This document shows, piece after piece, positions 46,431 to 52,604 of a stretch of DNA of 64,000 nt. Within the stretch, counting starts at the first letter, position 1. Each line of letters begins with the position of its first letter. This stretch comes from Shigella phage ESh25. The stretch lies in sequence record ON528735, one strand, 5' to 3'. Made by a program: the position numbers and the translations under genes. Below the pieces are notes generated by a model. The model ran no database searches. It saw nothing but the letters and a program-made list of their open reading frames with translations, and was not told where the DNA came from.

Positions 46431-46444
46431 CTTTGGAGAAAATT

Positions 46445-47245
46445 ATGGCAGTAGTTGGTGTTCCTGGTTGGATTGGAAGTTCATCCGTAAATGAAACAGG
46501 ACAACGATGGATGAGTCAAGCGGCTGGTCAATTAAGATTGGGTATTCCTTGCTGGATGAGTCAATTTGCAGGTCGCTCAAGAGAAATTATTCACACGCTT
46601 GGAGCAGACCATAACTTCAATGGTCAATGGTTCCGAGATAGATGTTTTGAGGCAGGTAGTGCACCTATAGTGTTTAATATCACAGGAAATTTGGTATCAT
46701 ATTCTAGAGATGTTCCTTTATTCTTCATGTATGGAGATACACCAAATGAATATGTTCAGTTGAATATTAGCGGTGGAGCTCATATGTGGGGCAGAGGTGG
46801 ACAAGGTGGATGGACTCATTCTGGTGGAGATGGTAATGGTCAACAGGGTGGACATTGTATTCAAAATGACATTGGTGGTCGGTTAAGAATTAATAATGGT
46901 GGAGTAATTTGTGGCGGAGGAGGCGGTGGCGGCGGTATCGCTTATCGTCCTCACTCTGGTGCAAACTGGCAAGATATTGGTGGCGGTGGAGGAAGACCGT
47001 TTGGCCCAGGAGGTGGCGGTGGTTATTCAGGAGGTGCTGCTTCTTATGATGGCCCAGGAGGTGGTTATAATTATGGTATTGCTCACTCTGGTCAAGGTGG
47101 CGATGCTGGAGGAAATGGACAAAATGCCTGGCATGATGGTGGTAAAGTTCTAAAAGTTGGCGCTGGCGGGGCGGCAGGTTATGCTGTAATAGGGTCTGCT
47201 CCAACATGGCAAAATGTTGGAATAATATATGGTCCAAGAGTATAA
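46445..47245 (+). CDS. 38: gp38 receptor-recognising adhesin (T2-type, glycine-rich motifs flanking variable segments)
   Basis: 266 aa from MAVVGVPGW; polyglycine runs GGGGGGGG, GGGGG, GGGGG separated by short variable segments. Confidence 0.85.
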
Positions 47246-47276: not shown

Positions 47277-47933
47277 ATGACAGCACCTAGAATATCATTT
47301 TCGCCCTCTGGTATTCTGTTTGGTGTTCTAGATCGCTTGTTCAAAGATAACGCTACCGGGAAGGTTCTTGCTTCCCGGGTAGCTGTCGTAATTCTTTTGT
47401 TTATAATGGCGATTGTTTGGTATAGGGGAGATAGTTTCTTTGAGTACTATAAGCAATCAAAGTATGAAACATACAGTGAAATTATTGAAAAGGAAAGAAA
47501 TGCACGCTTTGAATCTGTCGCCCTGGAACAACTCCAGATAGTTCATATATCATCTGAGGCAGACTTTAGTGCGGTGTATTCTTTCCGCCCTAAAAACTTA
47601 AACTATTTTGTTGATATTATAGCATATGAAGGAAAATTACCTTCAACAATAAGTGAAAAATCACTTGGAGGATATCCTGTTGATAAAACTATGGATGAAT
47701 ATGCAGTTCATTTAAATGGACGTCATTATTATTCAAACTCAAAATTTGCTTTTTTACCAACTAAAAAGCCTACTCCCGAAATAAATTACATGTACAGTTG
47801 TCCATATTTTAATTTGGATAATATCTATGCTGGAACAATAACCATGTACTGGTATAGAAATGATCATATAAGTAATGACCGCCTTGAATCAATATGTGCT
47901 CAGGCGGCCAGAATATTAGGAAGGGCTAAATAA
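47277..47933 (+). CDS. t: holin
   Basis: 218 aa, same as T4 T holin; single N-terminal transmembrane helix and large periplasmic domain. Confidence 0.9.
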   Translation: MTAPRISFSPSGILFGVLDRLFKDNATGKVLASRVAVVILLFIMAIVWYRGDSFFEYYKQSKYETYSEIIEKERNARFESVALEQLQIVHISSEADFSAVYSFRPKNLNYFVDIIAYEGKLPSTISEKSLGGYPVDKTMDEYAVHLNGRHYYSNSKFAFLPTKKPTPEINYMYSCPYFNLDNIYAGTITMYWYRNDHISNDRLESICAQAARILGRAK

Positions 47934-48206
47934 TTATTTGTTTGTATACATCTCTAGATATCGATATACACCCTCAAAACCCTCGTTGAATTCGTCGATG
48001 AGGGTTTTCTTATCTTCTTGAGTTAATTCAGAAACAATTTTACGGAATGAATTCTGATTTAACTTTCTACCTTCATGCGTTACTCCAATCTCATTCAGAA
48101 ATGCAATAAAATTAGCACGATTCTCAACAATATCTTCTCTGGAAAATTTAATCAAAATAGACGCAACAGTAATAATTTCACGAACTGTATCAATATTTTT
48201 ATTCAT
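47934..48206 (-). CDS. asiA: AsiA anti-sigma70 factor
   Basis: 90 aa, same as T4 AsiA; recalled N-terminus MNKNIDTVREII. Confidence 0.9.
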   Translation of the reverse strand: MNKNIDTVREIITVASILIKFSREDIVENRANFIAFLNEIGVTHEGRKLNQNSFRKIVSELTQEDKKTLIDEFNEGFEGVYRYLEMYTNK

Positions 48207-48218
48207 TAACTATACCAC

Positions 48219-48371
48219 TCAATTAGTTGACTTTGCTATAATATCATCAGACGTTTGATTTGTAAACTGGTCTGTGGTATTTTCTTCAAAAATTTTTTCT
48301 ACGAATTCCTTGAACGACTTACGTTCCTGAGCTACATTATGCTCGATTACTTTTTCAAGATTATGACTCAT
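48219..48371 (-). CDS. possible small acidic ORF (50 aa) coupled to the arn stop (ATGA overlap)
   Basis: Found by eye; overlaps the asiA promoter, so may not be translated. Confidence 0.3.
   Translation of the reverse strand: MSHNLEKVIEHNVAQERKSFKEFVEKIFEENTTDQFTNQTSDDIIAKSTN
48238..48267 (-). promoter_or_regulatory. early promoter for asiA
   Basis: GTTTAC, 18 nt, TATTAT about 30 nt before the asiA ATG. Confidence 0.55.
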
Positions 48372-48646
48372 TCGAAATAATCTTCAATTTCATAATCAAG
48401 GACATAAATCATTATAGTTTTTAATACATCATCAATACTTTTTCCTGGAGCTGGAATTACGTAAAAATATCCTGCTTTTGAGTTATCTTTATAAGTTCCA
48501 ATCAAGAAATCATTATTCCCAAGATGTAGTTCTTCAACTAATTCATTAACAATTGAGTGATATAAATTTGGTAGAAACTTGTATAGCTTTTCTAGAATAT
48601 CAATTTTGATTGTGTATTGAACCACAGATTGAGAATCAATAATCAT
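48368..48646 (-). CDS. arn: Arn anti-restriction (McrBC inhibitor) protein
   Basis: 92 aa, same as T4 Arn; position adjacent to asiA. Confidence 0.7.
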   Translation of the reverse strand: MIIDSQSVVQYTIKIDILEKLYKFLPNLYHSIVNELVEELHLGNNDFLIGTYKDNSKAGYFYVIPAPGKSIDDVLKTIMIYVLDYEIEDYFE

Positions 48647-48729
48647 AGACCTTCCCCTTATGTTTCTGTTTGCGATTAGATTCTTTAAACGCTTTCTTCT
48701 TATCCTTATGGACAGAAGCTTTATTAAAA

Positions 48730-48948
48730 TTATGTTTTGCGACTAAATTGTTCATAGTGCTGAATTACCTCTCTTAAACAATTGCATGTGAATGAAAACT
48801 TTTTAGCTACACCACATTCAAATATATGTTCTCTTAAATCACGTGTGTCAGTATATCCCATCTCAACGATAAAATGTCTTATTAAATTTTTATCTTTATC
48901 ATTAAGAGAATTAAAATAATCAGATTTTGAATTAATTTCCCTGGCCAA
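48730..48948 (-). CDS. hypothetical protein (72 aa), Cys-containing
   Basis: ORF in the arn-motA array. Confidence 0.5.
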   Translation of the reverse strand: MAREINSKSDYFNSLNDKDKNLIRHFIVEMGYTDTRDLREHIFECGVAKKFSFTCNCLREVIQHYEQFSRKT

Positions 48949-49228
48949 ATTGAATCACCTTCAGTTGACGTTTTAATTCTTTTATCATTTCTTCGTTCAT
49001 CGCAATATAAAGATCGCGTAAAGCAGGTTTTAACATTCCATTTACTGGAGAACTAAATGGACACACATAATCTTTTCCTACGAGCTTTTTGGCGAATTCC
49101 ATATTACAGAACTTAAATCCCGGCTCATTGGTATAAATTCCCCAATTAGTTGACATCATTTTATTAGCATATTCCAGTGCCTGGATTTGATTCATAATTC
49201 CATCGATTTGAAACTTTTTAATATTCAT
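48932..49228 (-). CDS. hypothetical protein (98 aa)
   Basis: ORF in the arn-motA array. Confidence 0.5.
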   Translation of the reverse strand: MNIKKFQIDGIMNQIQALEYANKMMSTNWGIYTNEPGFKFCNMEFAKKLVGKDYVCPFSSPVNGMLKPALRDLYIAMNEEMIKELKRQLKVIQFGQGN

Positions 49229-49689
49229 TAGTAAAGGTCCTCAGAGTAAAGTTCTTTTTCACTACCACCACGTTCAATACGTACTTGTCCAGCGTAAGTT
49301 GCAATAATCATTGCTTCTTCGCGAGTCCAATAATTACTATATTGGTCAATAAACCCTTGGTCATCATCACAAACTTGTTGAGTAACTAATTGAGGTTTAA
49401 CTACATCTAAAACTTCTGCCATATCTTTAGAATAATGACGAGCACCTGGAATAATAAGAGTTCGTCCATCTTTTAATTTAAAACGGTTGGCTGCACAGAC
49501 AATTCGTCGTTGATACTTTTGGTTTTCATCCCAATATGCAGTCTGCCAACAGATTTCAGGAACTTCATCTAAAACATTTTGTTCTGTATATTCACCACCA
49601 TAAGAAGCTAATTTAGCAGCCAGACTTTCCGGAGTCTCACGAGATAAAGCTTTATCTAACAGAGCTAAACGTTCTTTAAAAGTTTTCAT
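49228..49689 (-). CDS. hypothetical protein (153 aa)
   Basis: ORF in the arn-motA array; ATGA-type overlaps. Confidence 0.55.
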
Positions 49690-50015
49690 TTAAACCATCC
49701 TTTAATACGCTGCCACAAAGTTTTCTGTTGAGCTTTGTTAACACCAATTGAACGAATAACCGGTTGAGATTCCTGGAATTCTTTATAATCGGCAAGGTAA
49801 ATTTCGTAAGCTGCATCTGTAAAGGAACTTATCGCTGCCATAAAATTATTGCGAATACCTACTGGAGCATCTTTACTTTCACGAATAATCATGTATTTAC
49901 CAGTCTTAATCTTTACAATAGTTCCAAGATAAGCTCCATGGTACCAAATATCCCAACCCTCTTGAGTAGGTTCTGCACAACGACGAAGTTCATTGACAAT
50001 TTCTAACTTGTTCAT
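49686..50015 (-). CDS. hypothetical protein (109 aa)
   Basis: ORF in the arn-motA array. Confidence 0.55.
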
Positions 50016-50025
50016 TATTTATTCC

Positions 50026-50661
50026 TCACAGTTCAGATGCTACAGTGATTACAGCTTCAATGATTTCTGCCGAGCGTTTAATGTCAAGATACACATTACC
50101 GTTTTTAGCGATTTTACATGACATTCCGATATCAGTAAATTTCTGAATATGATGTTCCATCATTTTGTATCCAAAAATTCGCATATTTCCATTGTTGTTA
50201 ATTTCAAAATTGCGAATTCCATGTGTACGTTTTTCTAAAATGGCAAGATAATTACTACGATAAGTTTCAACCTTTTTAAGAACAAATCCATTTTCATCTA
50301 GCAGTTTTAACATGAGATCTTTATCTTCTTCCATATCGGAAGTAATCTCGCGAGCTTTACGAGTAGCACGTTTTTTCAGAAGTTCTGGAGCATTTTCTTG
50401 CGCATATAAAGTTGCTGCGTTTGAAATAATATCTTGCGCTTCGCCTGTGATGATTAATCCATCACCTGATTTCTCCACCAGGCCTTTTTTAATCAATACC
50501 CCAATATTACTATTAACTACTGCGTTACCTAAATCTGGATTCACCTCACGAACTTCTGCAGCTGTAATGAAATCTTTCTTAGCAATAGTAATTAAAATCG
50601 CAGCAGTTTTTTCATTCAGAACATCGTTAGAAGCTTTGATGATGTAAGTTACTTTAGACAT
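50026..50661 (-). CDS. motA: MotA middle-transcription activator
   Basis: 211 aa, same as T4 MotA; between 52 and the arn cluster. Confidence 0.85.
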   Translation of the reverse strand: MSKVTYIIKASNDVLNEKTAAILITIAKKDFITAAEVREVNPDLGNAVVNSNIGVLIKKGLVEKSGDGLIITGEAQDIISNAATLYAQENAPELLKKRATRKAREITSDMEEDKDLMLKLLDENGFVLKKVETYRSNYLAILEKRTHGIRNFEINNNGNMRIFGYKMMEHHIQKFTDIGMSCKIAKNGNVYLDIKRSAEIIEAVITVASEL

Positions 50662-50698
50662 TTTAATCTCCGTTTCAGTTCATTTATTTGATAGGTCT

Positions 50699-50727
50699 AT
50701 AGTATCATGTTTAAAGCAGAAGTAAAC
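50699..50727 (-). promoter_or_regulatory. early promoter for motA
   Basis: GTTTAC, 17 nt, TACTAT; leader shares the 23-nt CTATCAAATAAATGAACTGAAAC with the neighbouring cassette at 51010-51035. Confidence 0.55.
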
Positions 50728-50766
50728 ACTTTTTTGCACTCTTTTTCAAGAGCTCTAATAAAGTAC

Positions 50767-50994
50767 TTACTTAATGTTCAGATTACGAACTTCGATTTCG
50801 TCTTCATGGGCAAAATCAAACTGTTTGAATTCTGTGTCACCTTTAAATTTAAAAATCATTGTGAAGAAAGTCAGAACACCAGGTTTTTCTTCACGAACTC
50901 CACAGATATTATATTCAATACCATCTACAACCAGTTTGTTAGCAGTCAGAGCATTTTTAGCTTTAACGATTTCGTTTTCGATTTTAAATTTCAT
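50767..50994 (-). CDS. hypothetical protein (75 aa)
   Basis: GGAGA Shine-Dalgarno; own promoter. Confidence 0.55.
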   Translation of the reverse strand: MKFKIENEIVKAKNALTANKLVVDGIEYNICGVREEKPGVLTFFTMIFKFKGDTEFKQFDFAHEDEIEVRNLNIK

Positions 50995-51043
50995 TTTTTG
51001 TATCTCCGGGTTGTTTGTTTCAGTTCATTTATTTGATAGTTGT

Positions 51044-51073
51044 ATAGTACCACAGTATGCTTTGGTTGTAAAC
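51044..51073 (-). promoter_or_regulatory. early promoter; repeated cassette (near-identical to 34358-34420)
   Basis: GTTTAC, 18 nt, TACTAT with conserved upstream AAAATTTTTTCACAAAAC. Confidence 0.5.
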
Positions 51074-51095
51074 CGTTTTGTGAAAAAATTTTTGA

Positions 51096-51124
51096 AATAA
51101 AAAAGGGAGAGCCGAGGCTCTCCC
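51096..51124 (-). terminator. rho-independent terminator
   Basis: Stem GGGAGAGCC/GGCTCTCCC followed on minus strand by TTTTTTATTT. Confidence 0.7.
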
Positions 51125-51129
51125 TAAAA

Positions 51130-51279
51130 TTACTGCATGACTGTGATAACCGTCATGATAACACGTTGAATTCCGAACGCAAGAAGACCTCCTGCTACGG
51201 CAGGAACAACACCTAAACCCGCCAGTAAAATGCCACCAGATACTAATGCAGCGCTTGTGATACCAATGAATGGACTCAT
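51130..51279 (-). CDS. small hydrophobic Gly/Ala-rich membrane peptide (49 aa)
   Basis: Found by eye; ATGA overlap with the gene 52 stop; single predicted transmembrane segment. Confidence 0.45.
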   Translation of the reverse strand: MSPFIGITSAALVSGGILLAGLGVVPAVAGGLLAFGIQRVIMTVITVMQ

Positions 51280-52604
51280 TTGATTTCCTCTAAATCTTTG
51301 GTGTATTCTGTAACTACATCAGTAGTTTTCCAATATTCGTTTTCTTCTTTTTTGGCTTTAGCTTCTTCAGCAAGTTTCTTTGCTTCGTCGGAAGTCATAT
51401 GAAAAATATTCATTCCGACTAGTTTATCAACATAAGAAGAATACATCTCAATTTTAGAAAGTTCTTCGGTCAGTTCTTTACGAGTTTTACCCTGCACAAC
51501 AATTTCACCTGAAATTACTTTCTTAATGAAATGTGCCTTGGCAAAAGCTAAACGAAATGCTAATTCAGTTTCTTTGATTTTGTTATCAATTCGTTTTTGG
51601 ACATAAGTTTTACGAACTTCAACGAAGTCTTTGATTAAATCAACTACATTATCGTAAACTTGTAGTTTTCCTTTCTCATTAATAACCGTAATATTCTGAG
51701 AACGACGCTCAATCAACCCGAAGTCTTTCATAATTTTTGCATGGCGTTCTTCTTCGTTATCGCTCAAAGAGTATTCTTTGCGGAATTTAACTTTGAAGCC
51801 AAAGCCATGCTCACCACAAGCATCATCCCATGTAATGAAGCCTTTATCTTCAAGCGGGTCTAAGATTTTACTCACATAAGTTTCACGATCATACTTATAT
51901 GGAATCTCAGTGATATGCATTTGAGTTCGTGAAGTAAACTTATATGTTCCACGAATTTCATATTGCCCATCAATTTCAACGACTTCACCACGAAATTCTG
52001 GGAATTCTACCTTCGGTTTAGTTACTTTCTTTCCTTGAAGAGCTTGCAGTACAGCTTTCTTGACAGAAGAAACACTATGAGGAAGAATGTAAGTTGCATA
52101 ACCAGTTGCAATACCGGAAACGCCATTAAGAAGAACAGTAGGAATAATAGGCAAATAGAAAGCAGGCGGAATGTGTTCTTTATCTTGATGTACCGGAGCA
52201 TATTCAGTATCTTTATATACGTTATAGAAATTTTTACTTACACGAGCAAAAATATAACGACTTGCTGCTGCCTTTTGGACAGTACGAGAACCAAAGTTTC
52301 CTTGACCGTCTAACAGAGGAAAGTTATTATTCCAAGTGTTAGCCATCAAAGCACCTGCGTCTTGTGCAGAGTTTTCGCCATGGTGATATCCAAGGTCCGC
52401 TACACCACCTGCAATAGAAGCGAGTTTGTGAAACTTATCTTTATTTCCTCGTGCCAAATCAAGAGCTCGAGCAATAACAAATCGTTGAACTGGCTTAAAT
52501 CCATCAATCATATTTGGGATAGCACGATTTTCAACCGTGTACATAGCATAAGCCAATGCTTCATTATCAATGATACTTTTTAAATCGCGATTATTCAGTT
52601 GCAT
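51276..52604 (-). CDS. 52: DNA topoisomerase II medium subunit gp52 (GyrA-like)
   Basis: 442 aa, same as T4 gp52. Confidence 0.9.
   Translation of the reverse strand: MQLNNRDLKSIIDNEALAYAMYTVENRAIPNMIDGFKPVQRFVIARALDLARGNKDKFHKLASIAGGVADLGYHHGENSAQDAGALMANTWNNNFPLLDGQGNFGSRTVQKAAASRYIFARVSKNFYNVYKDTEYAPVHQDKEHIPPAFYLPIIPTVLLNGVSGIATGYATYILPHSVSSVKKAVLQALQGKKVTKPKVEFPEFRGEVVEIDGQYEIRGTYKFTSRTQMHITEIPYKYDRETYVSKILDPLEDKGFITWDDACGEHGFGFKVKFRKEYSLSDNEEERHAKIMKDFGLIERRSQNITVINEKGKLQVYDNVVDLIKDFVEVRKTYVQKRIDNKIKETELAFRLAFAKAHFIKKVISGEIVVQGKTRKELTEELSKIEMYSSYVDKLVGMNIFHMTSDEAKKLAEEAKAKKEENEYWKTTDVVTEYTKDLEEIK

Follow-up and report, generated by a model that had tools for sequence, protein, structure and literature searches.

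Phage T4 has been studied more thoroughly than any other phage, and even so one third of its genes are without a function. Between arn and motA it carries arn.1 to arn.4 (NC_000866, T4p258–T4p261), and the same genes lie in the same order, on the same strand and between the same neighbours in Shigella phage ESh25, of which we analysed a stretch of 64,000 nucleotides (nt; sequence record ON528735). We refer to this 64-kb segment of a Tequatrovirus genome as the window, and all coordinates are those of the whole window. A preliminary description of the window had proposed the open reading frames (ORFs) between arn, which encodes an anti-restriction protein, and motA as a candidate anti-defence locus. 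Our analysis indicates that the string of genes from motA to asiA is probably a mixed host-manipulation operon and not a dedicated anti-defence island, and that Arn.4, the product of the ORF nearest motA, is the orthologue of a phage protein that acts on the cell-elongation machinery of the host.

Two preprints describe the closest relatives of this locus. In phage T2 (June 2026, bioRxiv 10.64898/2026.06.19.733364), arn.4, arn.3, arn.2, arn.1 as well as arn form one abundant transcript, as seen by RNA-seq and RIL-seq. The host small RNA (sRNA) ArcZ pairs with positions +285 to +294 of arn.2, shielding the transcript from RNase E, and deleting mcrC suppresses the defect that T2 shows on an arcZ mutant (10.64898/2026.06.19.733364). 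The second study (16 September 2026, bioRxiv 10.64898/2026.09.14.751387) screened 45 early proteins of the Mosigvirus AV110 (OR352940.1), among which Gp94, a protein of 109 amino acids (aa) and 12.74 kDa encoded beside a MotA-like gene, showed the highest toxicity and was named Emp, for elongasome-modulating peptide. Expression of Gp94, which localizes to the cell periphery, led to lemon-shaped cells, growth arrest and mislocalized peptidoglycan synthesis; its toxicity was partly relieved by MreB, MreD or MreBCD, and in two-hybrid assays it interacted with MreB, more weakly with MreC and MreD, and not with FtsZ (10.64898/2026.09.14.751387). AV110 gp92 to gp94 were classed as early, and gp92 and gp93 caused no growth inhibition in the same screen (10.64898/2026.09.14.751387).

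In the window, the genes are arranged as follows, listed in the direction of transcription.

motA, 50026..50661, minus strand: 211 aa, activator of middle transcription, first in the packed string (PF09158 at 3.9e-66, PF09114 at 9.1e-60)
arn.4, 49686..50015, minus strand: 109 aa, 12.7 kDa, orthologue of Emp (AV110 Gp94; PF26821, phrog_1594)
arn.3, 49228..49689, minus strand: 153 aa, an N-terminal helical extension (aa 1-44) followed by a conserved core of ~95-110 aa (PF26092/phrog_839)
arn.2, 48932..49228, minus strand: 98 aa (PF26819/phrog_1844)
ArcZ sRNA pairing site CCAGGGAAAT, 48935..48944, minus strand: last codons of arn.2 and codons 2-5 of arn.1
arn.1, 48730..48948, minus strand: 72 aa in its full-length form, TTG start
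39-aa basic ORF (DUF7230), 48636..48755, minus strand: PF23876 at 1.2e-11, phrog_1359 at 5e-23
arn, 48368..48646, minus strand: 92 aa, DNA-mimic inhibitor of McrBC (PF22134 at 1e-50)
asiA.1, 48219..48371, minus strand: 50 aa (phrog_3762)
asiA, 47934..48206, minus strand: 90 aa, anti-sigma-70 factor, last in the string (PF09010 at 1e-42)

The four ORFs of 72, 98, 153 and 109 aa that had been reported between arn and motA are present at the positions given for them. The interval in which they had been placed, starting at 48368, includes arn itself, and the ORFs, which had been called downstream of arn, lie upstream of it in the direction of transcription, which runs on the minus strand from motA through arn.4, arn.3, arn.2, then arn.1, to arn. 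The set is also larger than four: a fifth ORF of 39 aa (48636-48755), missed in the preliminary description, shares 26 nt with the end of arn.1 and 11 nt with the start of arn. From motA to asiA, neighbouring genes either overlap by 1-26 nt or are separated by gaps of 10-12 nt, and no terminator-like site was found on the minus strand between them. This tight packing, together with the single transcript of T2 (10.64898/2026.06.19.733364), bears out the idea that the ORFs form an operon-like array with arn, and the T2 operon is the same five-gene unit with the same ArcZ site. Over the 2.8 kb surrounding the locus, identity is 97.5% with Escherichia phage JLBYU22 and about 96% with T4; the DNA from arn through motA is 96% identical to T4, and MotA is 97% identical to its T4 counterpart. 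All four ORFs are orthologues of T4 arn.1 to arn.4, in the same order between arn and motA, with protein identities of 84-100% (Arn.1, 95% over 43 aa; Arn.2, 97%; Arn.3, 84%; Arn.4, 100% over 68 aa). They are thus already catalogued genes, and a T4 specialist would find nothing surprising in them as such. The window departs from T4 in having an intact arn.4 of 109 aa and in carrying another allele of the first 180 nt of arn.3. The T4 annotation leaves out the 39-aa ORF and shortens arn.1.

Arn.4 aligns with AV110 Gp94 over the full 109 aa without a gap, with 87 identical residues (80%) and 90% similarity (E=2e-70), and all Arn.4 homologues carry PF26821. Both proteins have a mass of about 12.7 kDa and both genes lie next to motA. 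The AlphaFold2 model of Arn.4 (mean predicted local distance difference test score, pLDDT, 80.7) consists of a helix, five strands, two helices and a C-terminal helix (helix 3-13; strands 14-16, 20-25, 28-37, 40-45 and 52-55; helices 58-63 and 66-83; a low-confidence linker; helix 94-107), a topology that agrees with the published Emp fold of an N-terminal helix, five antiparallel strands, two helices and a flexible joint. By sequence and by predicted fold, therefore, Arn.4 is the orthologue of Emp. The two proteins differ at 22 residues, and binding of MreB, MreC and MreD, growth arrest and lemon-shaped cells are findings on the AV110 protein only; homology suggests that Arn.4 of this phage also targets MreB, MreC and MreD. 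Because Emp targets the MreBCD elongasome, Arn.4 would be a host-takeover factor and not a defence inhibitor. T7 Gp0.6 is likewise a small, early, MreB-targeting phage protein that deforms cells, with no sequence or structural similarity to Emp according to the AV110 authors (10.64898/2026.09.14.751387). An amphipathic membrane helix at the C-terminus of Arn.4 was unsupported by a simple hydrophobic-moment scan. As for the other two AV110 proteins, gp93 is 99% identical to Arn.3 of the window and gp92 is 39% identical to Arn.2.

The start codon of arn.4 is ATG in the window and in all other relatives, and the T4 reference reads ATA at this position (50013-50015), which is why arn.4 of T4 is annotated at only 68 aa. 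As judged from this substitution, the laboratory T4 lineage may be without a functional Emp. From the 68-aa T4 remnant, the N-terminal helix and the first strands are missing.

The ORFs between arn and motA are real genes and not chance ORFs. Each of the four has a PHROG family match (E=1e-39 to 1e-73), and tblastn searches of 50,697 phage records found Arn.1 in 807, Arn.2 in 949, Arn.4 in 1001, Arn.3 in 1589 and the DUF7230 ORF in 1196. All are under purifying selection: the ratio of nonsynonymous to synonymous substitution rates (dN/dS; pooled Nei-Gojobori estimates against close relatives) is 0.11 for arn.4, 0.16 for arn.3, 0.12 for arn.2 and 0.04 for arn.1, compared with 0.06 for the 39-aa ORF, 0.03 for motA and 0.13 for arn. 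The narrowest gene of the set is arn itself, found in 484 records, and since every one of these has at least 80% identity, Arn is confined to Tequatrovirus.

Nine annotated genomes, which cover seven genera, and 34 IMG/VR loci were compared to see where the string varies. Arn.4, Arn.3, Arn.2 and the 39-aa ORF form an almost constant core adjoining motA that is present across Tequatro-, Mosig-, Dhaka-, Gapriver-, Karam- and Jiaodavirus, and roughly 60% of the IMG/VR loci have Arn.1. True Arn is limited to Tequatrovirus, other genera having unrelated ORFs in the arn slot, and Dhaka-, Gapriver- and some Jiaodaviruses have additional ORFs at the arn.4|arn.3 junction. Turnover is thus limited to the arn slot and the arn.4|arn.3 junction, and it is the anti-restriction gene itself that holds a variable slot. 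The earlier statement that T4-like phages vary in this interval therefore applies to these two places and not to the four ORFs, which are conserved across six genera and do not display the rapid gene turnover of accessory-gene islands.

Comparison of the string with other phages also showed that arn.3 (49235-49715, minus strand) is a mosaic cassette, with 95-100% DNA identity to Mosigvirus AV110 where the flanking genes have 40-80%. Relative to T4, divergence of arn.3 is confined to its first 180 nt (70-80% identity). This pattern suggests a recent exchange of arn.3 between genera, with breakpoints at the gene borders.

In the anti-defence proposal, at least one of Arn.1, Arn.2 and Arn.3 would directly inhibit a bacterial immune system: Arn.3 could be a sponge or hydrolase of an immune nucleotide, Arn.1 or Arn.2 could bind a restriction or abortive-infection effector, and co-expression with Arn could neutralize several defences at once. 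The T2 authors have already put such a speculation into print for these genes (10.64898/2026.06.19.733364), and several observations agree with it. In T2 they are co-transcribed with arn, with which they also form a packed string, and in a CRISPRi-ART screen of T4 (PMC11879866, supplementary file 15) arn, arn.1 to arn.4, asiA.1 and motA were all scored 'Not Fit'. Knock-down of arn.1 to arn.4 is thus neutral for the fitness of T4 on a laboratory host, where the genes are dispensable, as accessory genes would be on a host poor in defences; in this screen, whose guides were designed from the annotated T4 genes, arn.1 and arn.4 were targeted at internal start codons. Arn.3 is small, restricted to viruses and endowed with a polar, pocket-like motif, its 99% identical orthologue is non-toxic when overexpressed, and a Lar-family restriction-alleviation gene lies beside an Arn.3 homologue in a Kuttervirus. 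Anti-CRISPR-type islands resemble the locus in combining small early, laboratory-dispensable ORFs with a known inhibitor; they differ from it in that the present set of genes is kept across genera and evolves under purifying selection.

Other evidence weighs against this proposal. None of the four ORFs showed similarity to a known anti-defence sequence family or fold in family, PDB, profile and fold searches. Arn (PF22134) is, like its neighbours, a small early protein of the same operon, but it has no sequence relationship to Arn.1 to Arn.4, and it is limited to Tequatrovirus while they are not. It is also acidic, with an isoelectric point (pI) of 4.5, whereas Arn.1 (7.7), Arn.2 (9.2) and Arn.4 (9.2) are neutral to basic and so not acidic enough for DNA mimics; Arn.3 (4.9) is mildly acidic, with conserved residues that are basic or polar. 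Each of arn.1 to arn.4 occurs in more records than arn does, selection on them is purifying and not diversifying, the loci that encode an Arn.3 domain share no conserved partner and have annotated neighbours that mostly serve replication or nucleotide metabolism, and a different target has been demonstrated for the orthologue of Arn.4, the member nearest motA. Thus, although the anti-defence guess was reasonable by association and gains partial support from the dispensability of the genes, the evidence, which includes the activity of Emp on MreBCD and the lack of likeness to known inhibitors, does not favour it as it was stated, and we regard direct inhibition of an immune system by Arn.1, Arn.2 or Arn.3 as rather unlikely.

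The preliminary description had also found no recognizable motifs in the four ORFs. This holds insofar as Pfam, NCBIfam and PDB sequence searches with each ORF returned nothing beyond families of the domain-of-unknown-function (DUF) type, but Arn.3, Arn.4 and Arn.2 do carry the tags PF26092, PF26821 and PF26819, respectively, and Arn.3 has a sharp motif. PDB profile searches with Arn.3, Arn.4, Arn.2, Arn.1 and the DUF7230 peptide gave only noise (eL18, Pumilio at E=0.0045, YfiA, PYR1), and literature searches by Pfam, PHROG and VOG identifiers and by old gene synonyms found nothing relevant. Structure prediction with Foldseek comparison, which had been suggested as a check, gave the Emp topology for Arn.4 and, for Arn.3, no match to a PDB fold.

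Arn.3 is the most widely distributed of the products counted above. Its conserved core comprises residues ~45-153, and an alignment of 38 homologues has R61, A66, A67, R84, H85, Q111, G112, F113, D115, R123 and Q135 as invariant residues and L-x-SEDLY at the C-terminus as a nearly invariant motif. The same pattern of conservation was seen in a second alignment of 60 distant members. The core of Arn.3 shows R-x-IVCAAN, G-x-RH, QGF-x-D, R-x-x-A, G-Q and, at the C-terminus, SE-x-LY, and all 60 diverse members that were tested belong to phrog_839. Searched against 1.84 billion representative proteins, an Arn.3 profile matched 3515 clusters (defined at 50% identity) at E<=1e-3 and 1420 at E<=1e-10. 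The members, mostly stand-alone proteins of 90-130 aa and in some cases C-terminal domains of proteins of 200-434 aa, come from T4-like, jumbo and Vi1-like phages and siphoviruses and include phiKZ gp245 and proteins of Kuttervirus, Justusliebigvirus, jumbo Erwinia and Serratia phages and a 46-kb siphovirus; the N-terminal parts of the fusions (244-434 aa) had no Pfam match. Outside phages, a pattern scan found the domain at 14 loci in 185,579 bacterial and archaeal genomes and at 2 in 72,556 plasmids. The Arn.3 family is therefore essentially viral.

The Arn.3 model (pLDDT 89.9) has many structural neighbours among uncharacterized viral proteins and none among PDB folds. In this model, R84 and H85 follow strand 4, the QGF-D residues lie in strand 5 and R123 is at the N-terminus of the second helix, an arrangement that would fit binding of a phosphate-bearing ligand. 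One candidate relationship is weakly supported and unconfirmed: Foldseek gave weak matches (E 4e-3 to 7e-2) to three viral proteins annotated with large polyvalent-protein-associated (LPD) domains (Iyer et al. 2017), no Pfam LPD domain was found among the 60 Arn.3 members and the fused homologues, and plasmids gave only the two matches noted above.

In another reading, Arn.3, perhaps with Arn.1 and Arn.2, would serve replication, repair or RNA-end processing of the phage and not the manipulation of the host. Across 65 unrelated phage loci with an Arn.3 domain, annotated neighbours include genes for DNA polymerase A, primase-helicase, the small subunit of ribonucleotide reductase, dihydrofolate reductase and a YqaJ exonuclease, as well as PIF1 helicase, RNA ligase, DNA ligase, topoisomerase II and an HD phosphohydrolase, and the invariant set rich in Arg and His suits the binding of phosphate. 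None of them is a recurrent partner, however; the commonest neighbour is present at 5 of the 65 loci. Depositors have named family members 'putative polynucleotide kinase' and 'tRNA processing enzyme', but without stated evidence, and the fold of Arn.3 has no PDB likeness to kinases, ligases, Tpt1-type enzymes or 2H enzymes. As the gene is, moreover, dispensable in T4, we consider such a helper role unlikely. Similarly improbable, in our estimation, is that Arn.3 represents a novel kind of small enzyme or sponge, acting to clear a host immune or stress signalling molecule; if it were, the arn operon would be a multi-target counter-defence unit. In the Kuttervirus Salmonella phage Guerrero (1035-1782), the Arn.3 homologue directly follows genes for topoisomerase II and a Lar-family restriction-alleviation protein, and it is this homologue that its depositors, giving no evidence, labelled 'tRNA processing enzyme'.

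Arn.1, Arn.2 and the 39-aa peptide are smaller and more restricted. In the T4 annotation, arn.1 is reduced to its final 43 aa and follows a 70-nt stretch labelled 'intergenic', which the T2 preprint reads in the same way. Our comparison shows this stretch (48876-48948; T4 locus 2307-2376) to be the coding 5' part of arn.1. Every nucleotide difference between the window and T4 within the 70 nt is synonymous in the 72-aa arn.1 frame; Mosigvirus, Jiaodavirus and further genera have Arn.1 homologues that start at ATG or GTG and are 65-75 aa long; the supposed spacer contains DYFNSLN, the motif that is best conserved in the Arn.1 family; and 803 of the 807 tblastn matches of Arn.1 span at least 80% of the 72 aa. 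In Tequatrovirus the start of arn.1 would be a TTG 17 nt inside arn.2, after the sequence AAGGTG.

Arn.1 is limited to T4-like phages and matched no family or PDB entry. Its residues H41, C45, C57 and H64 are invariant in homologues from all genera sampled, which suggests that it may be a small metal-binding module with His and Cys ligands. Arn.2, also limited to T4-like phages, is highly conserved within Tequatrovirus and showed no significant similarity to other proteins. The 39-aa ORF is present, though unannotated, in T4, where both nucleotide differences are synonymous in frame; it encodes an extremely basic peptide (pI 10.2) with an invariant SxRKQKHKG tail. A likeness of the DUF7230 peptide to ribosome-rescue peptides of the ArfA type was considered and discarded: the peptide had no match to ArfA in Pfam at E<=1 or in a PDB profile search at E<=10.

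The location of these genes raises a further alternative, in which Arn.1, Arn.2 and the 39-aa peptide modulate RNA polymerase, the nucleoid or the ribosome as cofactors of the early-to-middle switch. They lie between motA and asiA in all T4-like genera sampled, the arrangement of H41, C45, C57 and H64 in Arn.1 is reminiscent of small nucleic-acid-binding modules, and the high pI of the 39-aa peptide points in the same direction. Against this, none of them matched a helix-turn-helix, zinc-finger or other family, the supposed resemblance of the DUF7230 peptide to ArfA was not recovered by the PDB profile search, and an association by position is weak evidence in itself, so that we hold a role in transcription takeover to be very unlikely.

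The reading of arn.1 presented above bears on the ArcZ site. The sequence CCAGGGAAAT is the exact reverse complement of nt 65-74 of ArcZ from E. coli K-12 and equals positions +285 to +294 of T2. It occurs once in the 64-kb window (0.09 copies expected by chance), in each of the nine Tequatrovirus loci compared and at none of the other T4-like loci, and is thus confined to the loci that carry true arn and the TTG start. We base the site on the exact complementarity of the 10-mer, a scan with RNAduplex having been uninformative owing to the dominance of the ArcZ terminator hairpin. Given the arn.1 start at the TTG immediately upstream of it, the site takes in codons 2-5 of this gene, within its translation initiation region, and for the same reason the RNase E site proposed for T2 falls inside the arn.1 coding sequence and not in a spacer. 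The proposed RNase E motif is ACAUU in the window and GCAUU in the T2 preprint. An effect of ArcZ on translation of arn.1 is therefore possible, one unconsidered in the literature examined, and pairing in the start region of arn.1 would change how the published ArcZ/RNase E model is read.

Taken together, these observations lead us to favour, with moderate confidence, a mixed host-manipulation operon. The Tequatrovirus string would be an early/middle operon with translational coupling, and its products would be small accessory proteins that act on the host in different ways. Arn.4 would bind MreB, together with MreC and MreD, at the cell periphery, misdirect lateral peptidoglycan synthesis and stop growth of the host, and Arn, at the far end of the string, acts on McrBC as a DNA mimic. 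Arn.3 would contribute a phage-wide alpha/beta domain of ~95 aa that may bind or process a phosphorylated small molecule or a nucleic-acid end, and the remaining small factors, Arn.1, Arn.2 and the 39-aa basic peptide, do not extend beyond T4-like phages. On the Tequatrovirus transcript, the 10-nt ArcZ site at the arn.2/arn.1 overlap may protect the mRNA from RNase E, as it does in T2. Several points weigh against this reading. The Emp data come from an 80% identical orthologue, from over-expression on a plasmid and from a preprint that has not been peer-reviewed; three of the four ORFs are without an assigned function, and the case for heterogeneous functions is to that extent an argument from ignorance; the proposed ligand or enzymatic activity of Arn.3 comes from a conservation pattern and a predicted structure; and co-transcription with arn, dispensability and the Lar-family neighbour in Kuttervirus would all be compatible with counter-defence by Arn.1, Arn.2 or Arn.3.

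With Arn and Arn.4/Emp, the string now has two assigned members. The practical gain of the comparison is a corrected map, with a full-length Arn.1, an additional 39-aa gene and an intact Emp that is missing from the T4 reference. Beyond these annotation corrections and the position of the ArcZ site, the residual interest of the locus lies in the large Arn.3 family, whose predicted fold has no counterpart among PDB entries. Among the ORFs, Arn.3 alone appears worth biochemical effort, as its activity would be common to thousands of phage lineages, and confirmation of an anti-defence function for any of the ORFs would yield a new inhibitor family.

The surroundings of the string provided a few further observations. 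Searches for regulatory elements found no match to the MotA-box consensus upstream of arn.4 and no RNA family in an Rfam scan of 47500-51500, and matches resembling sigma-70 promoters were not commoner across the region than in shuffled sequence. Two candidate elements upstream of motA are consensus matches only.

Terminator-like hairpin upstream of the string, 51104..51125, minus strand: 9-bp stem with 6 GC pairs and a T-run
Sigma-70-like promoter match after the hairpin, 51044-51072, minus strand: TTTACA-17-TACTAT with extended TG

Between motA and the hairpin lies an ORF of 75 aa (phrog_10955; 50767-50994, minus strand) that is missing in T4 and found in some Tequatrovirus loci (L017, L018 and L039) and in locus L024; it appears to be a variable accessory gene. 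At the other end of the string, asiA.1 has a dN/dS of 0.72 against close relatives, a far weaker constraint than that of any neighbour, and its coding status or function may be marginal. Beyond asiA, the gene that follows gp37 (46433-47245, plus strand) encodes a glycine-rich protein of 270 aa, which we take to resemble the gp38 adhesin of the T2/T6 type and not the gp38 assembly chaperone of the T4 type; a 'tail fibers protein' occupies the matching position in NR1, the closest genome.

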